Below are positions 11,928 to 63,418 of a stretch of DNA of 64,000 nt, one piece after another. The DNA comes from an uncultured Planctomycetota bacterium (GTDB taxonomy: Bacteria > Planctomycetota > Planctomycetia > Gemmatales > Gemmataceae). The notes beneath the pieces are model-generated. The model was not told where the DNA came from, ran no database searches, and saw only the letters and a list, made by a program, of their open reading frames with translations. The position numbers and the translations under genes were made by a program. Every line of letters begins with the position of its first letter. The first letter of the stretch is position 1. Location: NCBI GenBank assembly GCA_963849325.1, contig CAWKHF010000007.1:480001-544000 (forward strand), read 5' to 3'.

Positions 11928-14900
11928 ACGTGGTCGTGACCCTCAGTCAGCGTTTCGAGCGTTCCCCCGACGGGCGCGTGTGGACGCCCGCCGCCTTCGC
12001 CTACCCCTTCTGGACGCGCTATCTGGAAGTCTTCGATGGCGTGCGTGTCGTGGCTCGCGTTCGGGACGTGGCCGCGGCGCCGGCGGGATGGAATCGCGCC
12101 GACGGCGACGGCGTTGTCTTCACGCCGATCCCTTATTTTCGGGGACCGTGGCAGTATTTGCTCAAGGCGCGCCGCGTTGCCCGTACCGCTCGGGCGGCCA
12201 TCGGCCCGACAGACGCCGTCCTCCTTCGCGTACCGTCGGAACTGGCCCGCTGTGTGTCAACGTATCTACGGCAGAGCGGCCATCCCTACGGTGTCGAGGT
12301 CGTGGGCGATCCGTATGAGGTCTTCGCGCCGGGTGCGCTTCGTCATCCGCTGCGTCCGTTCTTACGCTGGTACTTCCCCGCGCAGCTGCGGCGCCAGTGC
12401 GCCGGCGCTTGCGGGGTTGCCTACGTCTCTCGCCACGTCCTGCCCCAGCGCTATCCCTGTCCCCATCACGCCGCGTACTTCTCGGACGTTGAGTTGCCCC
12501 CGGCCGCCTGGGTGTCCGCCCCAAGACCGCCTCGACCCGACGCGCGCGCCTTCACGCTCGTTACCATTGCCTCGCTGGAACAGCTCTACAAGGCGCCGGA
12601 CGTGCTGATCGACGCTGTCGCCGTATGCGTCCGGGATGGCTGGGACTTGCGGCTCGTGTTTGTCGGCGGAGGGCGGCATCGCGCGGAGTTGGAGGCGCGG
12701 GCGGCATCGCGGTGCCTGGCGGAGCGCGTCGTTTTCCACGGTCAGGTGCCGGCCGGCGAGGGCGTTCGCGCGGCGCTGGATGCGGCGGACCTGTTCGTGC
12801 TGCCCTCGCGCACCGAGGGACTTCCGCGGGCGATGCTGGAGGCGATGGCTCGCGGTCTGCCCTGCCTCGGCTCGCGCGTCGGAGGTATCCCCGAATTGCT
12901 CTCGGAAAAGGAGCTAGTCGAACCGGGCAACGTCGCCGGCCTGGCCGCCAAGATCGCCGAGGTGCTGAGCGACCCCGACCGTCTCTCGCGTCTGTCAGCC
13001 CGTAACCTGGCGAGGGCCGCCGAGTATCGCCCGGATATTCTGCGCGAGCGCATGTTGGCGTTCTATCGCCACGTCCGCAACCAGACGCAAGCCTGGCTGT
13101 CGGAGGAAGAGACTCGGAAGAGTGGCGCGTGGCGAGTGGCGTGTGGCGAGGGAAGAAGAAGCCTCTTCCCTCGCCACACGCCACTAACCACGAGCCACTC
13201 TTCCGACATCCGGCTGCTCCACGTCACCACCGTCCCGCAGTCGCTTGGCTTCCTGCGCGAGCAGGTGCGCTACGTCCAGAAAGAGGGCTTCAACGTACAC
13301 GTGCTTTCCTCGCCGGGGGAGTCCCTGGAGCGCTTTGGGACGGAAGAGCAGGTCGTCACCCATGCCGTGTCCATGCCCCGGCGAATCACGCCGCTGCGCG
13401 ACCTGTGGACGCTGGGACGGCTGTGTCGCATCCTCCGCCGCGTTCGACCGGACATCGTACATGGCCACACGCCCAAGGGCGGACTGCTGGCCATGCTCGC
13501 GGCCTGGTGTTGCGGCGTGCCGGTGCGCGTCTACCACATTCACGGCCTGCCTCTGATGACGGCCTCCGGATGGCGGCGCCGGCTGCTGCGCTGGACGGAA
13601 AAGACCGCCTGCCTCTTCGCCCAGCAAGTGTTCTGCGTCAGTGCCTCGGTTCGCCAGGTCGCGGTTGAAGAAGGTCTGTGTCCGGCCGAAAAGGTCCGCG
13701 TGCTGCTCGACGGCAGCATCGATGGCATGAACGCCGACAGGTTCGACCGGACGAAGCTGTCGCCGGAGACACAGCGGCGCGTCCGCGAACAGTACGGCAT
13801 CCCTCCGGATGCTCTCGTGCTGGGGTTCGTCGGGCGGGTGGTGCGCGACAAGGGGCTGATCGAGCTGGCCGAGGCCTGGCAGCGACTGCGGATGGAGTTT
13901 CCCGACGCCCACCTGCTCATCGTCGGCGGGACCGAGCCGCAAGATCCGATCCCTCCGGACGTGGAGGACCGGCTGCACAACGAGCCGCGCATTCACCAGG
14001 CGGGCACCGTCCGCGACACCATCTCACTCTACGCGGCGATGGATCTCGTCGTCTTGCCGTCGTACCGGGAGGGTTTCCCCATCGTCCCGCTGGAGGCGGC
14101 GGCGATGGAACTGCCGGTCGTTGCCACGCGCATCCCCGGTTGTGTCGATGCCGTCCAGGACGGCGTCACGGGTACGCTCGTGCCGGTGCGCGATGCCGGC
14201 GCCCTGGCCGACGCGATTCGCCATTACCTGCGCGACCCGGTGCTCCGGCTCCAGCACGGCGCGGCGGGACGCCAGCGCGTCCTGCGCGACTTCCGGCCGG
14301 AGAAGATGGGCCAGGCCGTCTACAGCGAATACCGCCGGTTACTCGCCTCCGTGAAAAAAGGGACTAGGGGCGAGGGACTAGGGACTAGGGAAGAAGCGAG
14401 ATCCCTGTCTTCCCTAGTCCCTAGTCCCTCGCCCCTAGTCCCTTTTTCCGAGCATGGCACTTTCTACCAGCGTCGCGGCAAACGCTGGCTCGACTTGCTG
14501 CTGACGCTCCCGGCCCTGGTCGTCCTGGCGCCGGTCTTTCTCCTCCTTGCCGTCCTGGTCCGCCTGATGATGGGCGCTCCGGTCCTCTATCGGCAGCGGC
14601 GCGCGGGGCGGAACGGCGCACCGTTCACCATCCTGAAGTTTCGCACCATGACCAATGAGCGCGACGCCTCGGGACGGCTCGCTCCCGATTCGCGGCGATT
14701 GACGCGACTGGGCCGCTTTCTGCGCGGCACCAGCCTGGACGAACTGCCGGAATTGCTCAACGTCCTCCGCGGCGACATGAGCCTGGTTGGACCGAGGCCG
14801 CTGCTGCCGCGCTACTTGCCCTATTACTCGCCGCGCGAAGTGCGGCGCTTCGAGCGGCTGCCCGGCATCACGGGTTGGGCCCAGATCAATGGCCGCAATA

Positions 14901-35867: not shown

Positions 35868-36820
35868 TCACCAGTCGGAAGCGAGCGGGTTGCCGTCGCG
35901 CGGGTCGCAGGCGTTGGCCCAGGTGGCCGGGCTGATGCCCTCGGCGACGAAGCGAACGCTGCCGTCGCCCAGGCCGACGTTCGTGCCGCCGGTGTGGCCG
36001 GACTGGCCGCGTCCGGGATCGCAATTGGTGAACGGCTGCGGCCGTACCTGGAACAACTCGCACGGGGCGTAACCGGGTGAGGCGTTCTTGAGCACGTTGT
36101 TGTGGCACAGCATCGGCCGCCATTTCAACGTCGAGTCGGACCACAGCGAGCCGAAGGCGAACGACGCATCACCCCACAGACCGCACGAGGCGTAGACCTC
36201 GCCGAAGAGGACCGTGTTCGACAGGCCGTCCGGCACCGAACGCGGCAGGGCGGCGGACCCCTGGACGCAGTCGAAATCACTGTTGCCGTTGGGATTGCCG
36301 AAGACGTAGTAGTTGGCGCCGTAGCAGCCGGCGGCGAAGCTGTCGGCGCCCGCATAGGTGGTCGTGCAGTAGCCGTTGGCGACCGACGGGTCCGACGGAC
36401 AGACATACGTCTTGATGACCGTCTGATACTGTCCGCCGCAATAGCCGCCGCTGTAATTGGAGCTGCGCGGGATGTCGCCTTTGACCAACAGGTTGTAGAC
36501 GTTTTGCTGTTCCAAATAGGGCAACAGGAAGGAGAAGCACGTCCAGGCGCCGCCGTTGTAACAGGGGGCCGCCTCCGTCAGGGCCGTCCAGCCGTCCGGG
36601 CGCACAAGGGCGGCAGCACTTGCATCGTGTCGTTGATGTTCTGCGTCGCCAGGCCGATTTGCTGGAGGTTGTTCTGACACTGGACGCGGTTGGCCGCCTC
36701 ACGCACTTTTTGCACCGCCGGCAAGAGCAGGGCGAGCAGCACGGCGAGAATAGCGAGGACCACCAGTAGTTCGATGAGCGTGAATCCACTCCGGTGGCCG
36801 TCTCGGCAAGGCGGGAACAT
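35868..36820 (-). CDS. Prepilin-type DUF1559 protein (frameshift near 36605)
   Basis: [10 protein letters not shown]…[20 protein letters not shown]9-DG motif. Confidence 0.88.
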
Positions 36821-57590: not shown

Positions 57591-58114
57591 TCGCGCGGCT
57601 TGATGACTTTCCGCGGCCGAGCGAAGACCTGCGTGTAGTAAACCTCGCCCTTGTCATTGCGGGCGATGCCCAGGCCCGTTTCCGTGACCTTGTTGCCGAG
57701 CAGGTTCTCGCGGTGAAGCTTCGATTCCATCCAACCCTTGACGATGGCCGTGAGGGGTGCTTCCGCTCCCTCGCTCATGGCGATGTTCTCGCTGACTTTG
57801 CCGTAATCGTAACCGACGGCCAGGACGCGCTGGCCCGGCGTCTTGCCGTCGAGAACGTGTTCCATCTTCCCCTGCCTGGCCATGTTTGCCGAGTGCCCGC
57901 GCGCCGCTCGGAACAAGAGCGTCTGCGGCCGCAGAGGCGGCAGCTTTTCCTTCGCCCGCTCCTGGTTGATTAACTCCAGGAGGGTCCCCTCGTCCTTGCT
58001 CATCTCGACGTGGGCGCCTTCCAGCCTGCCCTTTCCCTTGGCGTCCTCCGCGAAGGCCGTCGAGGCCAAGGCGGCGAAGATCAGGAAGCCAAACGCGGAA
58101 GCGAATCGAATCAT
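57587..58114 (-). CDS. CAP (SCP) domain secreted protein
   Basis: INQER, AARGHS.NM, SENIA, WMES..HRENLL. Confidence 0.88.
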   Translation of the reverse strand: MIRFASAFGFLIFAALASTAFAEDAKGKGRLEGAHVEMSKDEGTLLELINQERAKEKLPPLRPQTLLFRAARGHSANMARQGKMEHVLDGKTPGQRVLAVGYDYGKVSENIAMSEGAEAPLTAIVKGWMESKLHRENLLGNKVTETGLGIARNDKGEVYYTQVFARPRKVIKPRD

Positions 58115-58194
58115 GACAGCACCTCGCCCAAGGTCGATAGGATGGCCGCGAACCAGACCGACCTCCTGTCCCTACGATTGTCGCCCGCGGCATC

Positions 58195-58228
58195 CGCATG
58201 GCCGTTCTGCTGCAGCGACGGGTTCGGC
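58195..58228 (-). other. Truncated attC site (R''/L'' arm only)
   Basis: Minus strand GCCGAAC-CCGTCG-CTGCAGCAGAACGGCCATGCG just after the toxin stop; closely similar to the corresponding arm of the split attC. Confidence 0.7.
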
Positions 58229-58234
58229 AGCCTG

Positions 58235-58594
58235 TCAGAGCGCACTGGGCCGGCGGATGCGGATCGAGCCCGGCGCGATCACGCAGAAGGCTCCGGCCAA
58301 CTCGGCCGCATGGTCCCGAAACAGCTGGGACACGGCCTCCGCCTTCGCTGAGGGAGACAGCCCCGCCAACCGGGTGAGCACGACGCCGCCGTGGATGCGG
58401 CCGAGGCGGTACACTAACTCGCCAAAGTCCTTGTCCGCGGTCACGAGCAGGGCCGACCGCGCGTTGGCCTCGCCGAGCACTTGATCGTCCGTGATGCTCG
58501 GCGCCAGTTCGGCGACGTACACCGTGGCATGGCCATCGGCGCGCAAGCGCTCCACCACCTCCCGCTCAACACTCTCGTCGGCCAGTAAGTTCAT
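58235..58594 (-). CDS. DUF5615 PIN-like toxin
   Basis: LLADESV…DDQVL…LVTADKDFGEL; overlaps the antitoxin stop. Confidence 0.85.
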   Translation of the reverse strand: MNLLADESVEREVVERLRADGHATVYVAELAPSITDDQVLGEANARSALLVTADKDFGELVYRLGRIHGGVVLTRLAGLSPSAKAEAVSQLFRDHAAELAGAFCVIAPGSIRIRRPSAL

Positions 58595-58827
58595 ACCGGC
58601 TGCGGGCTCAAGGGGTAGACTGTGTCAGCCCGCAACGCCTGGGCGGCAAAGGCGAAGGCGGCCAGCACGGCCGGCCGGGTCAGCCGGGGGTGAGCAGCGA
58701 GGATCTGTTCGATAGGCTCGCCGGCAGCCACCTTTTCCAAGATCAACTCCACCGTCACACGGGTTCCGGCGACCACCGGTTTACCCATCATGACGGCGGG
58801 ATCGGAGACAATCAATGGTTCGCTCAT
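58591..58827 (-). CDS. DUF433 antitoxin
   Basis: IVSDPAVMMGKPVVAGTRVTV. Confidence 0.88.
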   Translation of the reverse strand: MSEPLIVSDPAVMMGKPVVAGTRVTVELILEKVAAGEPIEQILAAHPRLTRPAVLAAFAFAAQALRADTVYPLSPQPV

Positions 58828-58996
58828 CGGGGCACCTCCGACCGCCAGTCTACAGCAACCGACGAGCCAAGAGCAAGCGCGGGCCGCCGAACGACACAGC
58901 TCAGATGGGGATGATGCCGGGTTGCTCCCACCGACGACAAGCCGGCGGTATTATGGAGTAACCCAGTAAAAGCCACCCCATCTGGAGCAACCCGAC

Positions 58997-60010
58997 ATGT
59001 CCACCACTCTACCACTGTTCGTCGGACTGGACTACTCCCAACACGCCGTCCAACTGTGCGTCTTGGACCCCACGGGTCAGGTCTTGTGTAACCGCGCCGT
59101 GCCGGACTCCGCCGACGCCATCGATCAGGCCGTCCGGCGATTCGGTGCCGTCCGCGGCGCCGCCCTGGAAGCCTGCACCGGAGCCGCCAACCTCGCCGAA
59201 GAACTCGCCGACCGCTACGCCTGGCCCGTCCACCTCGCCCACCCCGGATTCGTCAGCCGCATGAAACAGTCGCCCGACAAAACCGACTTCTCCGACGCCC
59301 GCGTCCTGGCCGACCTCGAACGGGTCGGCTACCTACCCCGCGTCTGGATTGCACCCCAGCAGCTCCGTGAACTCCGTACCCTGGTCCGCGACCGCCAACA
59401 ACTGGCCGCCCAGCGACGCAACCTCAAGCTCCAGATCGGTGCCCTGCTACGGGAACACCGCCTACGCTGTAGCCACAACCGCTGGACGCGGGCCTGGCAC
59501 GCCTGGTTGGAGCATCAAGCTCAACTGCCCGAACAAGCACGCTGGGTCATGCAACAACGCCTGCGTCGGCTGGCCTGGATCGTCCAGGAGATCCGCACCG
59601 TCGAAGAACGTCTCGAACAAGTCACCGCTGTGGACGGCACCGTAACTTGGCTGCGGACGATCAAGGGCATTGGTCCGGTCACCGCCTGGACGTTGCGGGC
59701 CGAGATCGGTCGCTTCGACCGTTTCCGAACCGGCAAGCAGTTGGCGCGGTACTGCGGCCTGACGCCGTGCAACCGCTCCTCGGGCGTGCGTGAGGCCGAC
59801 GCCGGTTTGATCCGGGCGGCCAATCCCGAACTGCGTCGCGTGCTCATCGAGGCGGCCTGGCTGTTGGCTCGTCTGCAGCCGCGTTGGCGGCAACTGGCCG
59901 AGCGTCTGAAGGCACGGGGCAAACCGAGTACGGTGGTGATAGCGGCCGTGGCCAACCGCTTCGTGCGTTGGTTGTACCACGAAGGAGTCCGCCAACAGGC
60001 GGCGGCCTGA
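58997..60010 (+). CDS. IS110 family DEDD recombinase/transposase
   Basis: VGLD, LEAC, KTDFSDA, IKGIG, YCGLTP…SSG. Confidence 0.93.
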   Translation: MSTTLPLFVGLDYSQHAVQLCVLDPTGQVLCNRAVPDSADAIDQAVRRFGAVRGAALEACTGAANLAEELADRYAWPVHLAHPGFVSRMKQSPDKTDFSDARVLADLERVGYLPRVWIAPQQLRELRTLVRDRQQLAAQRRNLKLQIGALLREHRLRCSHNRWTRAWHAWLEHQAQLPEQARWVMQQRLRRLAWIVQEIRTVEERLEQVTAVDGTVTWLRTIKGIGPVTAWTLRAEIGRFDRFRTGKQLARYCGLTPCNRSSGVREADAGLIRAANPELRRVLIEAAWLLARLQPRWRQLAERLKARGKPSTVVIAAVANRFVRWLYHEGVRQQAAA

Positions 60011-60330
60011 CGGATAGTGACAAGGCGTTGTCATTGTCGGGGGAGTTCCTGAGCGGTTGCGGGTGTGCTCGGCCGGCTGCTGGGGTTTAATCCTCGCGCT
60101 CAGATGGGGCAGCCCGCAACCTTTCTTCGCATCCCATTTGGGCAGGGTCTTGAACCCACGCTCGGATAAGAAGCATGGGAGCCCCAACAGCGTCGGCGTC
60201 CTGCCGAAGATTTCGCCGCCTCCGTGCGGCGACCAGGGGCGCTCATTGCCGCCCCCTGGACCCCCGGCTAGCCTCTCTCTGTTCCGGGAGGAAGAGAGGA
60301 GACTAACGCCGAGAAAAGGTGATTTTGCTC
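60011..60330 (+). ncRNA. Predicted bridge/seekRNA of element 1 (boundaries approximate)
   Basis: 60072-60081 is antisense to the right flank; 60098-60109 is identical to the left junction. Confidence 0.6.
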
Positions 60331-60518
60331 TTGACGAGTGGCCTGGCATCATAGAAGCAGCCGGCTCACGCGGGAGGAGGCGTGATGTCGCGCGAAACCG
60401 TTAGTCGCGTGGCCGGTCTGCCGCAGCGACTGGATACTCATGAAGGCTCTTGAAGCACACTTGAAGGAGACAGCACTCAGCCGCTGTCTCCTTCACCTGC
60501 TAACAACGAGAGGTCTTC

Positions 60519-61568
60519 ATGCGCTACTTCCAACCTACACCTGACACTCGATTCTATGCCGGTGTCGATCTCCACGCCAGATCCCTCTTTCTTGTTGTCC
60601 TCGACCACACCGGACAGATTCGCTACGCACGCAATCTCCCCGCCGCACCCCAGCCCTTCCGCAAAGCCATCACACCTTTCCGCGATGGACTCGTCGTCGG
60701 CTGCGAGTGCATGCACTGCTGGTACTGGCTGGCCGACGCCTGCCGCGACGACAACATCCCCTTCCGGCTCGGACACGCCTGGGCAATGAAAGCCGTCCAC
60801 GGCAGCAAGACCAAATGCGACCGTAAAGACGCCGAGGCCATCGCCCACCTGCTCAAGGGCGGCAACTTCCCGCTCGCCTATGCCTACCCCAAAGAACGAC
60901 GTGGACTCCGCGACCTGCTCCGCGCACGCCTCCGCCTGGTCCGCCAACGCGCCGAACTCTACGGACACGTCCACACCGCACGACGACAGCTCAACTTGCC
61001 GCCCATCTCCAACGATGTCAAATACAAGTCCAAGCGTGCCAGCGTCCTGGCCGACATCGACGACGACTGCGTCCGTCGCCGCGTCGAGGCCGACCTGTCG
61101 CTGCTGGAGCCGCTCGATACCACCATCCGACGACTGGAGAAGGACATCGAGGTCGCCGCACGACAGCACTATGCCACCGAGATGGCCGTGCTGCAATCGA
61201 CACCCGGCGTCGGCCTCGTCATCGCCCTGACCATCCTTTTGGAGATCGACACCCTCGAACGCTTCGACACCCGCCAACAGTTCTGCTCCTATGCCCGGCT
61301 ATGCGGCGCCCGCCAGGAGTCGGCCGGCAAGAAGGTGGGCACGGGCAACGCCAAGCAGGGCAACGCCTGGCTGAAGTGGGCCTTCTCCGAGGCGGCCGTA
61401 CTCAGCGCCCAGAAGAACGAACGCATCGGCCAGTACCTGGACAAGCTGTCGGGCCGTCTGGGCCAAGCCAAAGCCTTGTCGGCATTGGCCCACAAGCTGG
61501 GACGAGCCTTCTACCACATGCTCCACAAAAAGGAGGTCTTTCAGATCGACCAATTCCTGAGACACTGA
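60519..61568 (+). CDS. IS110 family DEDD recombinase/transposase, clearly different from element 1
   Basis: AGVDLH, GCEC, KCDRKDA, PGVG, SYARL…ESAG. Confidence 0.93.
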   Translation: MRYFQPTPDTRFYAGVDLHARSLFLVVLDHTGQIRYARNLPAAPQPFRKAITPFRDGLVVGCECMHCWYWLADACRDDNIPFRLGHAWAMKAVHGSKTKCDRKDAEAIAHLLKGGNFPLAYAYPKERRGLRDLLRARLRLVRQRAELYGHVHTARRQLNLPPISNDVKYKSKRASVLADIDDDCVRRRVEADLSLLEPLDTTIRRLEKDIEVAARQHYATEMAVLQSTPGVGLVIALTILLEIDTLERFDTRQQFCSYARLCGARQESAGKKVGTGNAKQGNAWLKWAFSEAAVLSAQKNERIGQYLDKLSGRLGQAKALSALAHKLGRAFYHMLHKKEVFQIDQFLRH

Positions 61569-62170
61569 GAAGCCAGGGCGCGGCCGGCGAGCCGAAGCCG
61601 AACGGGAGCCGCTACGGGCTAACCCTTACGACGACCCCCACCATCCAGGGAGCATCGACTCCGCAGTGGGGGTCCGGGACCGCCCAGGCATCCAGCCGCT
61701 TTGATGGGACGCCGGCCGCGTCCGTATTATTTCGACCGCGGTGGTCGCAAAAACAGGCCGCGATCCGCCGGTGGGTCGGGGGACCAACGGGATCAGCGTA
61801 ACGCTGTCCCAAGGAATCGGGCTTGGCTTTGAGCCATCCCACGTCCTCCCGACCCCCGCCAGACCGCGACCCGTGATCGCAAGGAGCCATTCGCCCGGAC
61901 GATCCGCCCCAGTCGCCAGCCTGGCCGAACGGGACGCTCCTTTGGGGGAGTGAGCCAGTCGCTTTTTGAATGGCGGCGAAGCTGGGAACGTATGAATATC
62001 GGGACCGGCCAGGGCAGGTTCCCTGGCACAGCCGCCTGGTCCTTCGGGTCTGGGCCGCCGGAGTCCGCATGAGTGTTGGGTGCGGTTCGCCTCGGCCGTG
62101 GGCCGAAGGTGTTCCGCGTCCGTCGCTGATATCCAAGCCGGATCGCCGAGGACGATTGCTCACTGCCGCT
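61569..62170 (+). ncRNA. Predicted bridge/seekRNA of element 2, with two target-like modules and one donor-like loop
   Basis: Repeated GCCGAACGGGA…CCAG(C/T)CGCTTT; ATGAGTG at 62069 and TATCCA at 62130 match the element ends. Confidence 0.6.
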
Positions 62171-62361
62171 GCAACCTTGTTCGGTCATCCTTCCGGCAAG
62201 AAAAACGCCGGAGATACCCGTTCCCGTGGAAAATATTTTTACTTGACACCAAGAGCCTTATGAGTGCAACCTTGTTCGGTCATCCTTCCGGCAAGAAAAA
62301 CGCCGGAGATACCCGTTCCCGTGGAAAATATTTTTACTTGACACCAAGAGCCTTATGAGTG
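62170..62361 (+). repeat. Exact tandem duplication with a 95-bp period
   Basis: 62170-62266 equals 62265-62361, overlapping at TG. Confidence 0.95.
62243..62266 (+). promoter_or_regulatory. -35 box at the IS right end that would form a promoter on circularisation
   Basis: TTGACA at 62243 (copy at 62338); joining the ends places GATACT from the left end 17-18 bp downstream. Confidence 0.55.
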
Positions 62362-62473
62362 TTCGGCGTCTGGTGTATTGTCGCTGACTCCCGCCGAACG
62401 ATAACTAAGTTAGTCGCTGGGTGACGAACAATAAATCCTCTCTCGTCCATCCCTTCCGCTTTGCTCTTGGAGC

Positions 62474-62800
62474 TTACTTACGGTAGCCCTGTCTCTTTAA
62501 CTCATCATTTATCAAGCGCCTATTCGCATCTTTACGTTCCCTTTCATTCCTATCCTCCATCCATTTTAACGTCTCTCTCCACTTTTTTTTCTCCTTCTCC
62601 GTCTTCTCCGCCTGTTCTGCTGCTTTCTCCTGCTGACGTTTTTTTGCCGCCTCCTCCCTCTCTTTACTCTCTCGCTCGATTCTCTCCTGTTCTACGGGTT
62701 GATTCAACCATATGCCGATCAAAGCTATCGGCACTATCGTTAATAAAGTAAATACGACCCCTCGACCCCATGGTGTCGGTGAATCACTCGTCTTATTCAT
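62474..62800 (-). CDS. Hypothetical protein (one TM plus charged coiled coil), low GC, possible cassette gene
   Basis: 108-aa ORF, purine-rich leader, same strand as the attC sites. Confidence 0.6.
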   Translation of the reverse strand: MNKTSDSPTPWGRGVVFTLLTIVPIALIGIWLNQPVEQERIERESKEREEAAKKRQQEKAAEQAEKTEKEKKKWRETLKWMEDRNERERKDANRRLINDELKRQGYRK

Positions 62801-62826
62801 ACCTACTACCCCCTGCTGTCGCCGAG

Positions 62827-62970
62827 TTACTGATCATTGCGCAAAGAAAGTTAAGTTTCTTACAGCTTGCCTTTCAGGTCGAAATCCTCAGCGATTCCCG
62901 CAGAAAGCAACGATTTCGGCCCCAAATTCACCCGGAAAAAGTTTAACATTCTTTGCGCAACGGTCAGTAA
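62827..62970. mobile_element. MITE-like element
   Basis: 28-bp terminal inverted repeats (62827-62854 / 62943-62970, 3 mismatches); too short to encode a transposase. Confidence 0.65.
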
Positions 62971-63418
62971 GACTAGAATGTGCTTGCGCACTTGGACCAT
63001 CCCCGGATTTCACTCCCCCGACGCTGAGGATTCAAGCGAAATCCTTTTATCCTCAATAAATGCCCTGTGCTTATCAGAGCCACAAGCCGATCGCACAACC
63101 GTCTGAGAAACATCCGGTCCATTTGAGCGTGCCATGTGGAGTAATTGCCGTTAGCGTGTCTGTGTCACCCACACCCGCCAGGTCTCTTCCTGATCGTTTC
63201 CGCCCAAATGCTGGGCCTCCTGCCGTTCCCCGTGGGTTTCCGGAACTATACGCTTGTCACCCTCGCCCCGTGAGCGCCTACCTCAGGGCAACGCTGTGGC
63301 ACAAGACGCACATGTTCCCCCACACCGTTCCAGTAGTGTGAAGGTCAGGCTGATGCCCGTCTCGATGGCGAAGCCCGTCCTGTCGCCGAAGACCACCGCC
63401 ACAGGAATGCCCTTCTTC

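Follow-up and report, generated by a model that had tools for sequence, protein, structure and literature searches.

What selects the insertion site of an IS110-family element, and can that site be read from the element's own non-coding DNA? The question is raised by an insertion sequence, here called element 1, that lies on the + strand of the window (the whole 64,000-nucleotide stretch of DNA that was analyzed). Downstream of its gene are two short segments that mirror its two junctions, and a reading made from the letters alone (the sequence-only reading) had taken them for the guides of an RNA. The boundaries of the element, the matches at its junctions, the relatives of the element, and the predicted structure of the putative RNA were examined in turn.

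The boundaries were fixed by aligning occupied and empty sites. Four copies of the element, ~98% identical, are present in the genome of origin (8.16 Mb, 14 contigs), and their alignment yields the occupied site ...AGCTC-AG-ATGGGGATGATGCC ... GGCATCATAGA-AG-CAGCCGGCTC..., in which the element extends from ATGGGGATGATGCC to GGCATCATAGA. Nine unoccupied copies of the target repeat read ...gCCGAACaacaAGCTC-AG-CAGCCGGCTCACGCGG... at the same place. The left flank of element 1 ends ...AAGCTC and the right flank starts CAGCCGGCTC; when compared with the empty sites, only AG is common to both junctions, and all four copies are located at one position of the repeat, which indicates site-specific insertion. 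The element measures 1451 bp without its core (58905–60355, + strand). The left copy of the core dinucleotide AG (58903–58904) was placed using the overlap of left and right identity together with the comparison of occupied and empty sites, and the right copy (60356–60357) using the latter comparison. The bases GCTC (58899–58902), which constitute the left target flank, are kept at all four occupied sites as well as at the best empty one (L011); they are matched by the sense guide described below. The sequence-only reading had described the left junction (58899–58910) as flank, core, and first bases of the element. The alignment of occupied and empty sites agrees with this description and resolves the junction into 4 nt of flank, 2 nt of core, and 6 nt of element.

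The right target flank (60358–60436, + strand) is the remainder of a REP-like palindromic repeat of ~100 bp; a second element starts at ~60437. The 77 bases to the right of element 1 have many weaker matches in the same genome, and the copies of the repeat found elsewhere in that genome are 74–86% identical. With up to two mismatches allowed, 26 hits to the repeat arm were obtained in the genome, compared to 8 for the reversed control; one perfect, unoccupied 14-nt target was present. Further exact 10-mers of the repeat arm were encountered in the window, with GCCGGCTGCT at 13578, 29573, and 54945 and AGCAGCCGGC at 36323. These are probably more REP-like copies and possible unoccupied targets.

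The transposase gene (58997–60010, + strand; 337 aa) was assigned to the DEDD/IS110 family using Pfam, NCBIfam, and relatives in the PDB. Two Pfam domains were detected (PF01548, E = 5e-20; PF02371, E = 9e-25), and the protein scored 204 bits against NCBIfam NF033542, "IS110 family RNA-guided transposase" (cut-off 140). The N-terminal DEDD/RuvC-like domain and the C-terminal IS116/IS110/IS902 domain of the family are thus both present. The nearest relatives of known structure were ISCro4 (9t56, E = 1.6e-16) and IS621 (8wt6, E = 5e-16). Within the family, the IS1111 group is described as having transposases of 330–350 aa, subterminal inverted repeats, and a longer non-coding region 3′ of the gene (PMC11187229; see also PMC11208160). 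Element 1 shows this combination: the transposase has 337 residues, only AG is duplicated, and 345 nt of non-coding DNA follow the gene (60011–60355) compared to 92 nt that precede it (58905–58996). The subterminal inverted repeats are positioned 6 nt (left) and 3 nt (right) from the tips of the element, and the end motifs recur in relatives. The left arm, ATGATGCC (58911–58918, + strand), matches at 10 of 12 positions if extended, and the same LE motif is found in relatives; the right arm, GGCATCAT (60345–60352, + strand), was read from the sequence. ISPpu9 of Pseudomonas putida (PMC12288879), which has no subterminal inverted repeats and carries its bridge RNA upstream of the gene, belongs to the IS110 group, in contrast to the IS1111 features of element 1. 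An Rfam scan of 58000–63000 (E up to 1) returned no family match. A search for the transposase in 400 other genomes of the same phylum gave no match outside its own genome at E up to 1e-40, a threshold so strict that this negative result says little.

Two segments of the downstream region correspond to the junctions. Guide A, GCCGGCTGCT (60072–60081, + strand), had been proposed to be antisense to the right flank, and it is the exact reverse complement of AGCAGCCGGC (60356–60365); that is, it is complementary to the top strand of the core and right target (AG+CAGCCGGC), and its match covers 60358–60365 of the repeat. The second segment, GCTCAGATGGGG (60098–60109), had been proposed to equal the left junction at 58899–58910, and this identity is likewise exact. 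It comprises most of the target part of guide B (60097–60103, + strand), i.e., five variable nucleotides and the core AG, which equal the top strand of left flank and core and match here over 4+2 nt. It continues with an extension, ATGGGG (60104–60109, + strand), that is the same as the 6 nt with which the element starts (58905–58910). The likelihood of such matches was estimated using 5000 dinucleotide-preserving shuffles of the 345-nt non-coding region, which were compared with the junction sequences. A reverse-complement match of at least 10 nt to the core and right flank was rare (33/5000), and a sense match of at least 12 nt to the left junction never occurred (0/5000). The flank-and-core part of guide B taken alone (GCTCAG, 6 nt) was matched in 1757/5000 shuffles, which is not above chance, so the meaning of these 6 nt is drawn from the comparison of relatives.

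The sequence-only reading had named covariation among homologs as a check. The relatives comprised 12 usable loci (of 13) from genome contigs, having 47–82% identity, and 80 of 519 confirmed metagenome stretches; the window's own locus and the three sister copies brought the total to 96 loci. Element ends in the relatives were set by motif rather than by empty sites. Loop 1, the structure that holds both guides, was parsed in 75 of the 96 loci, and 21 were left out (truncated contigs or variant motifs). A common scaffold was evident: a stem, GCGCUCG, ten variable nucleotides, GGGC, a short hairpin, GCUCG, five variable nucleotides, AGAUGGGG, CAG, and the second arm of the stem. The order of guide A followed by guide B was found in all 75 parsed loci.

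On the right side, 59 loci with at least 8 nt of flank gave 40 unique A guides; because the relatives are kin, such counts are non-independent, even though the guides were collapsed to unique sequences. Three registers were allowed, and the window's guide was represented by that of the relative L019. Complementarity of guide A to the core and 8 nt of flank averaged 7.97/10, compared to 4.61 in 1560 mismatched pairs. A match of at least 8/10 was reached by 30 of the 40 unique guides and by 3.1% of the mismatched pairs, and none of 10,000 permutations attained the observed mean. By position, the frequency of matching was 0.82 and 0.92 for the core, and 0.88–0.98 for right-target bases 1–6; it dropped to 0.50 and 0.25 at bases 7 and 8, respectively. 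Low scores were obtained for L025 (3/10), L075 (6/10), and L087 (6/10), and also for L039 and L047 (4/10 each), in which the parser had chosen another segment; under an alternative parse, the guides of the latter two match core and right flank at 10/10, as judged by eye. On the left side, 63 loci with a left flank gave 41 unique B guides. Their identity to the flank at positions -1 to -4 was 1.00, 0.90, 0.76, and 0.54 (0.22–0.30 in mismatched pairs) and fell to the chance level at -5 to -8; again, a mean as high as that observed arose in 0 of 10,000 permutations. Both segments therefore covary with their flanks. In one relative (L022), the core is GG at both junctions, with GG or CC in guide A, guide B, and the corresponding strand of a second loop.

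Several individual loci deserve mention. In L028, the cores differ, being AG on the left and GG on the right; the former is read by guide B and the latter by guide A, so this locus is a natural core mismatch between the two guides. In L025 (2728–2760), another left-end-like sequence, GGGATGAGCACG, occurs ~20 nt downstream, and the right flank resembles the end of another element; the locus may be a nested or rearranged insertion. The closest genome relative, L019 (82% aa identity, on a 2.7-kb contig), shares both guides and the REP-like target, AG-CAGCCGGCTCACGCGGGAGA, with element 1. The metagenome-assembled genome that contains it is labelled Chloroflexota, and those of other relatives are labelled Planctomycetota or Phycisphaerae; the label of L019 could reflect a binning error or a transfer.

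The structure of loop 1 was examined using RNAalifold on 43 sequences, i.e., the window and those 42 of the 75 parsed loci in which the hairpin was short, the guide pair unique, and the second loop complete. A stem, P1, closes loop 1; its arms are located at 60055–60064 and 60112–60121 (+ strand), a 3-bp extension having been added by eye. For the window positions 60058–60064 and 60112–60118, seven pairs were predicted, six of which show compensatory changes (up to 20 sequences for a given pair). The sequence-only reading had placed a short stem-loop between the two segments, and a small hairpin is indeed conserved there (60082–60095, + strand; GGGG...CCUC here, GGGC...GCUC in relatives). Its fourth and last pair is changed on both sides in 7 of the 43 sequences, and it contains a G.U pair in 42 of them. 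Three helices in total each have a G.U pair in 42/43 sequences, a pattern consistent with a + strand RNA but with neither DNA nor the opposite strand. The guides are accordingly situated in a loop framed by conserved helices, as in seekRNAs, given the compensatory changes in 6 of the 7 pairs of P1 and the conserved hairpin. The fold of a single sequence was much less informative: a 151-nt piece folded no better than its shuffles (z = -0.40), and the minimum-free-energy structure of the region paired guides A and B with one another, such that these folds were useful only for spotting stem P1. The rest of the non-coding region (60190–60330) contains three strong hairpins. This stretch is common only to element 1 and its closest relatives (L019, L036, and L043); it may have a role in processing or termination, or act as a spacer.

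Published seekRNAs of the IS1111 group (ISEc11, ISPa11, and ISKpn4) are described as carrying a guide complementary to the top strand 5′ of one complementary to the bottom strand, the two overlapping in the target and both including the core; the order is reversed in the IS110 type (PMC11187229). A target-binding loop with the antisense guide first and the sense guide second, as had been proposed for element 1, is supported by the covariation of both guides, by the compensatory stem P1, and by this published order. The boundaries of the element, its target, the covariation of guides with targets, and that of the stem are established directly. It is very likely that element 1 belongs to the IS1111 type within the IS110 family and is inserted at an AG core in the arm of a REP-like repeat, that its downstream 345 nt encode a seekRNA/bridge RNA, and that the guides of loop 1 pick the site. 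That this RNA is made and is bound by the transposase is what we infer for element 1. In the proposed mechanism, the non-coding region downstream of the gene would give rise to the RNA; loop 1 would form an internal loop closed by P1 (60055–60064 / 60112–60121) with the small hairpin between its strands; the 5′ strand would bear guide A (60072–60081), and the 3′ strand guide B (60097–60103) followed by AUGGGG, the sequence of the element's own left end. Guides A and B would jointly select the insertion site, the core being read by both. A second loop (60130–60179), built on the same scaffold, would read the ends of the element.

Two explanations do without a guide RNA altogether. The ends of IS200/IS605 transposons pair as DNA, and the covarying segments of element 1 might similarly act as DNA, with single-stranded or unwound element DNA pairing with the target. 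Covariation between segment and flank cannot by itself distinguish RNA from DNA, and the sole RNA run in which a match was found (one soil metatranscriptome, 5% of words) contributed only short contigs of 85–95% likeness, which represent relatives and in which ends and strand are not readable. The G.U pairs of the three helices, however, would become mismatches if the segments acted as duplex DNA or were read from the opposite strand, and for this transposase family both co-purification of the RNA and its reprogramming have been demonstrated, as described in PMC11187229 and PMC11208160; we thus consider pairing as DNA to be very improbable. Scarcely credible is the notion that the matches arose by chance or represent a captured, functionless fragment of the REP-like repeat. 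In its favor, the genome is GC-rich, the repeat is common, GCCGGCTGCT is present at three other places in the window, and the 6-nt flank-and-core part of guide B is at the chance level noted above. This notion nevertheless has to contend with 40 different guides that match 40 different flanks in the relatives, with segments that occupy fixed positions in a conserved scaffold, and with a 12-nt match that no shuffle reproduced.

The extension of guide B is a separate matter. It had been proposed that this guide extends across the post-recombination junction. The 6-nt identity to the left end of the element stands, and a guide role for ATGGGG does not follow from it: AUGGGG is invariant in 72 of the 75 parsed relatives and is possibly part of a stem. 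Because it is invariant, covariation says nothing on the extension, and because it does not track variants of the left end, its guide role is putative. The variable part of guide B that reads the left target amounts to only 3–4 nt plus the core. A structural role for the segment, given somewhat less than an even chance, would have AUGGGG, and above all its GGGG/GGGC, pair with the invariant GCUC that precedes guide A (60067–60070, + strand) and thereby extend P1, such that only GCUC+AG, and perhaps AU, read DNA; the identity to the left end would then have another cause, e.g., the same protein surface binding both. RNAalifold predicts that GCUC pairs with GGGC (60107–60110) in all 43 sequences, and relatives with the left ends ATAGGG, ATGGGA/T, and ATGGTA all retain AUGGGG in guide B, in keeping with a structural role, as is its near-invariance. 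Furthermore, the comparable "handshake" of IS621 is described as only 2 nt (PMC11208158). The four predicted pairs are nearly or fully invariant, however, and covariation neither supports nor excludes a helix in which both strands are invariant. With the commonest variant of the left end (G to A at position 3), an rG.dT wobble with the bottom strand would remain possible. Moreover, the left end is ATGGGG in most relatives, as is also expected of a guide and a donor that are jointly constrained.

A more speculative proposal, which we regard as doubtful, is that guide B is a composite "junction guide" in which one strand of 12–13 nt reads the left target (3–5 nt), the core, and 6 nt of the left end, and that the second loop is a duplicated module fixed on the right end. 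If this were true, the extension would be three times as long as the IS621 handshake, and loop 1 alone could recognize the target before insertion as well as the left junction after it. It would also explain two properties described for IS1111 elements, in which a short, one-loop seekRNA is enough for transposition and excision needs target-derived flanks (PMC11187229).

The scaffold of loop 1 is repeated at 60130–60179 in the order CATCCCATTT, GGGC, hairpin, GCUCG, and GATAAGA-AG-CA-TGGG. The 5′ strand of this second loop, CATCCCATTT (60130–60139, + strand), holds CCCATTT and is, by positional analogy with guide A, a candidate guide for the top strand of the core and left end. The hairpin (60140–60163, + strand) consists of GGGC...GCUC with inner GGG/CCC pairs that RNAalifold finds changed on both sides in 4–10 sequences. 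The 3′ strand, GATAAGA-AG-CA-TGGG (60165–60179, + strand), resembles the right end plus core (ATAGA+AG) with one extra A here; GATAGA+AG is found in this strand in 47 of 57 non-redundant relatives. CCCATTT had been called a weaker candidate for the donor guide. It lies at 60133–60139, at the site equivalent to that of guide A, and is partly complementary to the left end; the case for a donor role is weak: the 5′ strand pairs with AG+ATGGGG only by using two G.U pairs. Four lineages have the left end ATAGGG, among which L072 shows a full matching change in loop 2, L064 a partial one, and two none; the ends vary too little for more to be read from them. By analogy with loop 1, the most likely role of loop 2 would be to read the element's own ends, and donor binding by it is plausible.

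Two additional features of loop 2 were considered. A handshake in this loop, in which the two bases after ATAGA+AG track right-target bases 1–2, was present in 4 of 48 loci compared to 1.4% in the control; all four belong to the window's own sub-clade and thus represent one event, and the candidate was rejected as evidence. A stem between loop-2 AAUGGG and CCCAyU of the 5′ strand, judged by eye, fits the window and fails in L023 and L022. In the RNAalifold prediction, the partner of the loop-2 GGG is instead a CCC located at the 5′ end of the RNA, and these pairs show little covariation. Near the right end of the element is TTGACG (60331–60336, + strand), a candidate -35 box of a promoter that would be formed at the junction on circularization, with GAAGAT, spanning that junction, as the putative -10 box. 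TTGA(C/T) keeps a constant spacing to the right end in all relatives for which that end was parsed, which fits the junction promoter known for the family (PMC11187229; PMC12288879).

Element 1 most resembles ISEc11, ISKpn4, and ISPa11 (Siddiquee et al. 2024, PMC11187229), with which it was compared by description, in the size of its transposase, its subterminal repeats, its downstream non-coding region, and the order and overlap of its guides. The seekRNA of such elements is described as co-purifying with the transposase and as reprogrammable (PMC11187229), and IS1111 bridge RNAs as located in the right end (PMC11208160). As in ISPa11, the target is a palindromic repeat, and as in all three, natural retargeting appears to proceed via guide bases alone (PMC11187229), with 40 unique right guides here in one clade. 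The 6-nt run-on of guide B and the second loop of element 1 are absent from the Results text of PMC11187229, although the fold figures of that paper may contain the scaffold. The hosts differ as well, being Planctomycetota-like soil and sediment bacteria in the clade of element 1 and Proteobacteria for ISEc11, ISKpn4, and ISPa11.

The transposase is a distant relative of that of IS621 (8wt6, at the E-value given above), and the putative RNA shares features with the IS621 bridge RNA as described by Durrant et al. (2024, PMC11208160) and Hiraizumi et al. (2024, PMC11208158). Both have two similar internal loops with the core in each target guide, and both have one long guide (8–9 nt) and one short guide (4–7 nt), an extension by the core on the short guide matching the other DNA partner. 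In IS621, this handshake consists of two bases of the 3′ guide that adjoin the core and, once the strands have been exchanged, pair with the donor (PMC11208158). The likeness is closer when element 1 is viewed on the opposite strand. The core would then be CT and the guide order the same as in IS621 (PMC11208160; PMC11208158); guide A would be a long 5′ guide identical to the "left" target and core, and guide B, complementary to the "right" target, would be the short 3′ guide and run on into a handshake-like stretch that is complementary to the end of the donor. On the gene strand, the guide order is reversed relative to IS621, and the RNA of element 1 would follow the gene in the right end, in contrast to the published arrangement (PMC11208160; PMC11208158). 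The handshake-like match also differs in length (6 nt versus the 2 described in PMC11208158), and recognition of the donor by loop 2, unlike that described for IS621, draws no support from covariation in the clade of element 1, in which the ends vary too little.

Taken as a whole, element 1 is an ordinary, well-supported addition to the known IS1111 seekRNA/bridge-RNA kind, and the known picture of RNA-guided IS110/IS1111 transposition is unchanged by it. Its use lies in the fact that the target specificity of the clade is readable straight from DNA. The 10 nt between the invariant GCUCG and GGGC give the core and right target, and the 5 nt preceding AGAUGGGG give the left target; the effective lengths are the core plus about 6–7 nt on the right and 3–4 nt plus the core on the left. 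The 40 right and 41 left natural guides, with their flanks, can be regarded as a small reprogramming series provided by nature. Members of the clade are widespread in metagenomes of soil and sediment, in which one scan found 519 candidate stretches that encode a relative.

The neighboring element 2 (60437–62358, ORF 60519–61568), whose guide layout the sequence-only reading took to be different, a putative contrast, is also of the IS110 family by its Pfam and NCBIfam matches and is inserted in the other arm of the same copy of the REP-like repeat; two different elements thus target two positions of one repeat family. Its junctions read ...GCAGCGACTGG|ATACTCATGAAGG on the left and ...CTTATGAGTG|TTCGGCG on the right. 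It has subterminal inverted repeats and a region of ~790 nt after its gene. In its non-coding region, CCAGTCGC, which is antisense to the left flank and core, occurs at 61909 and 61955, and GCCGAAC, which is antisense to the right flank, at 61597 and 61924. Inspection by eye of its right end (62165–62358) revealed a block of ~95 bp, ...caaccttgttcggtcatcc...cttgacaccaagagccttatgagtg, that is present twice, which suggests a tandem duplication of this end.
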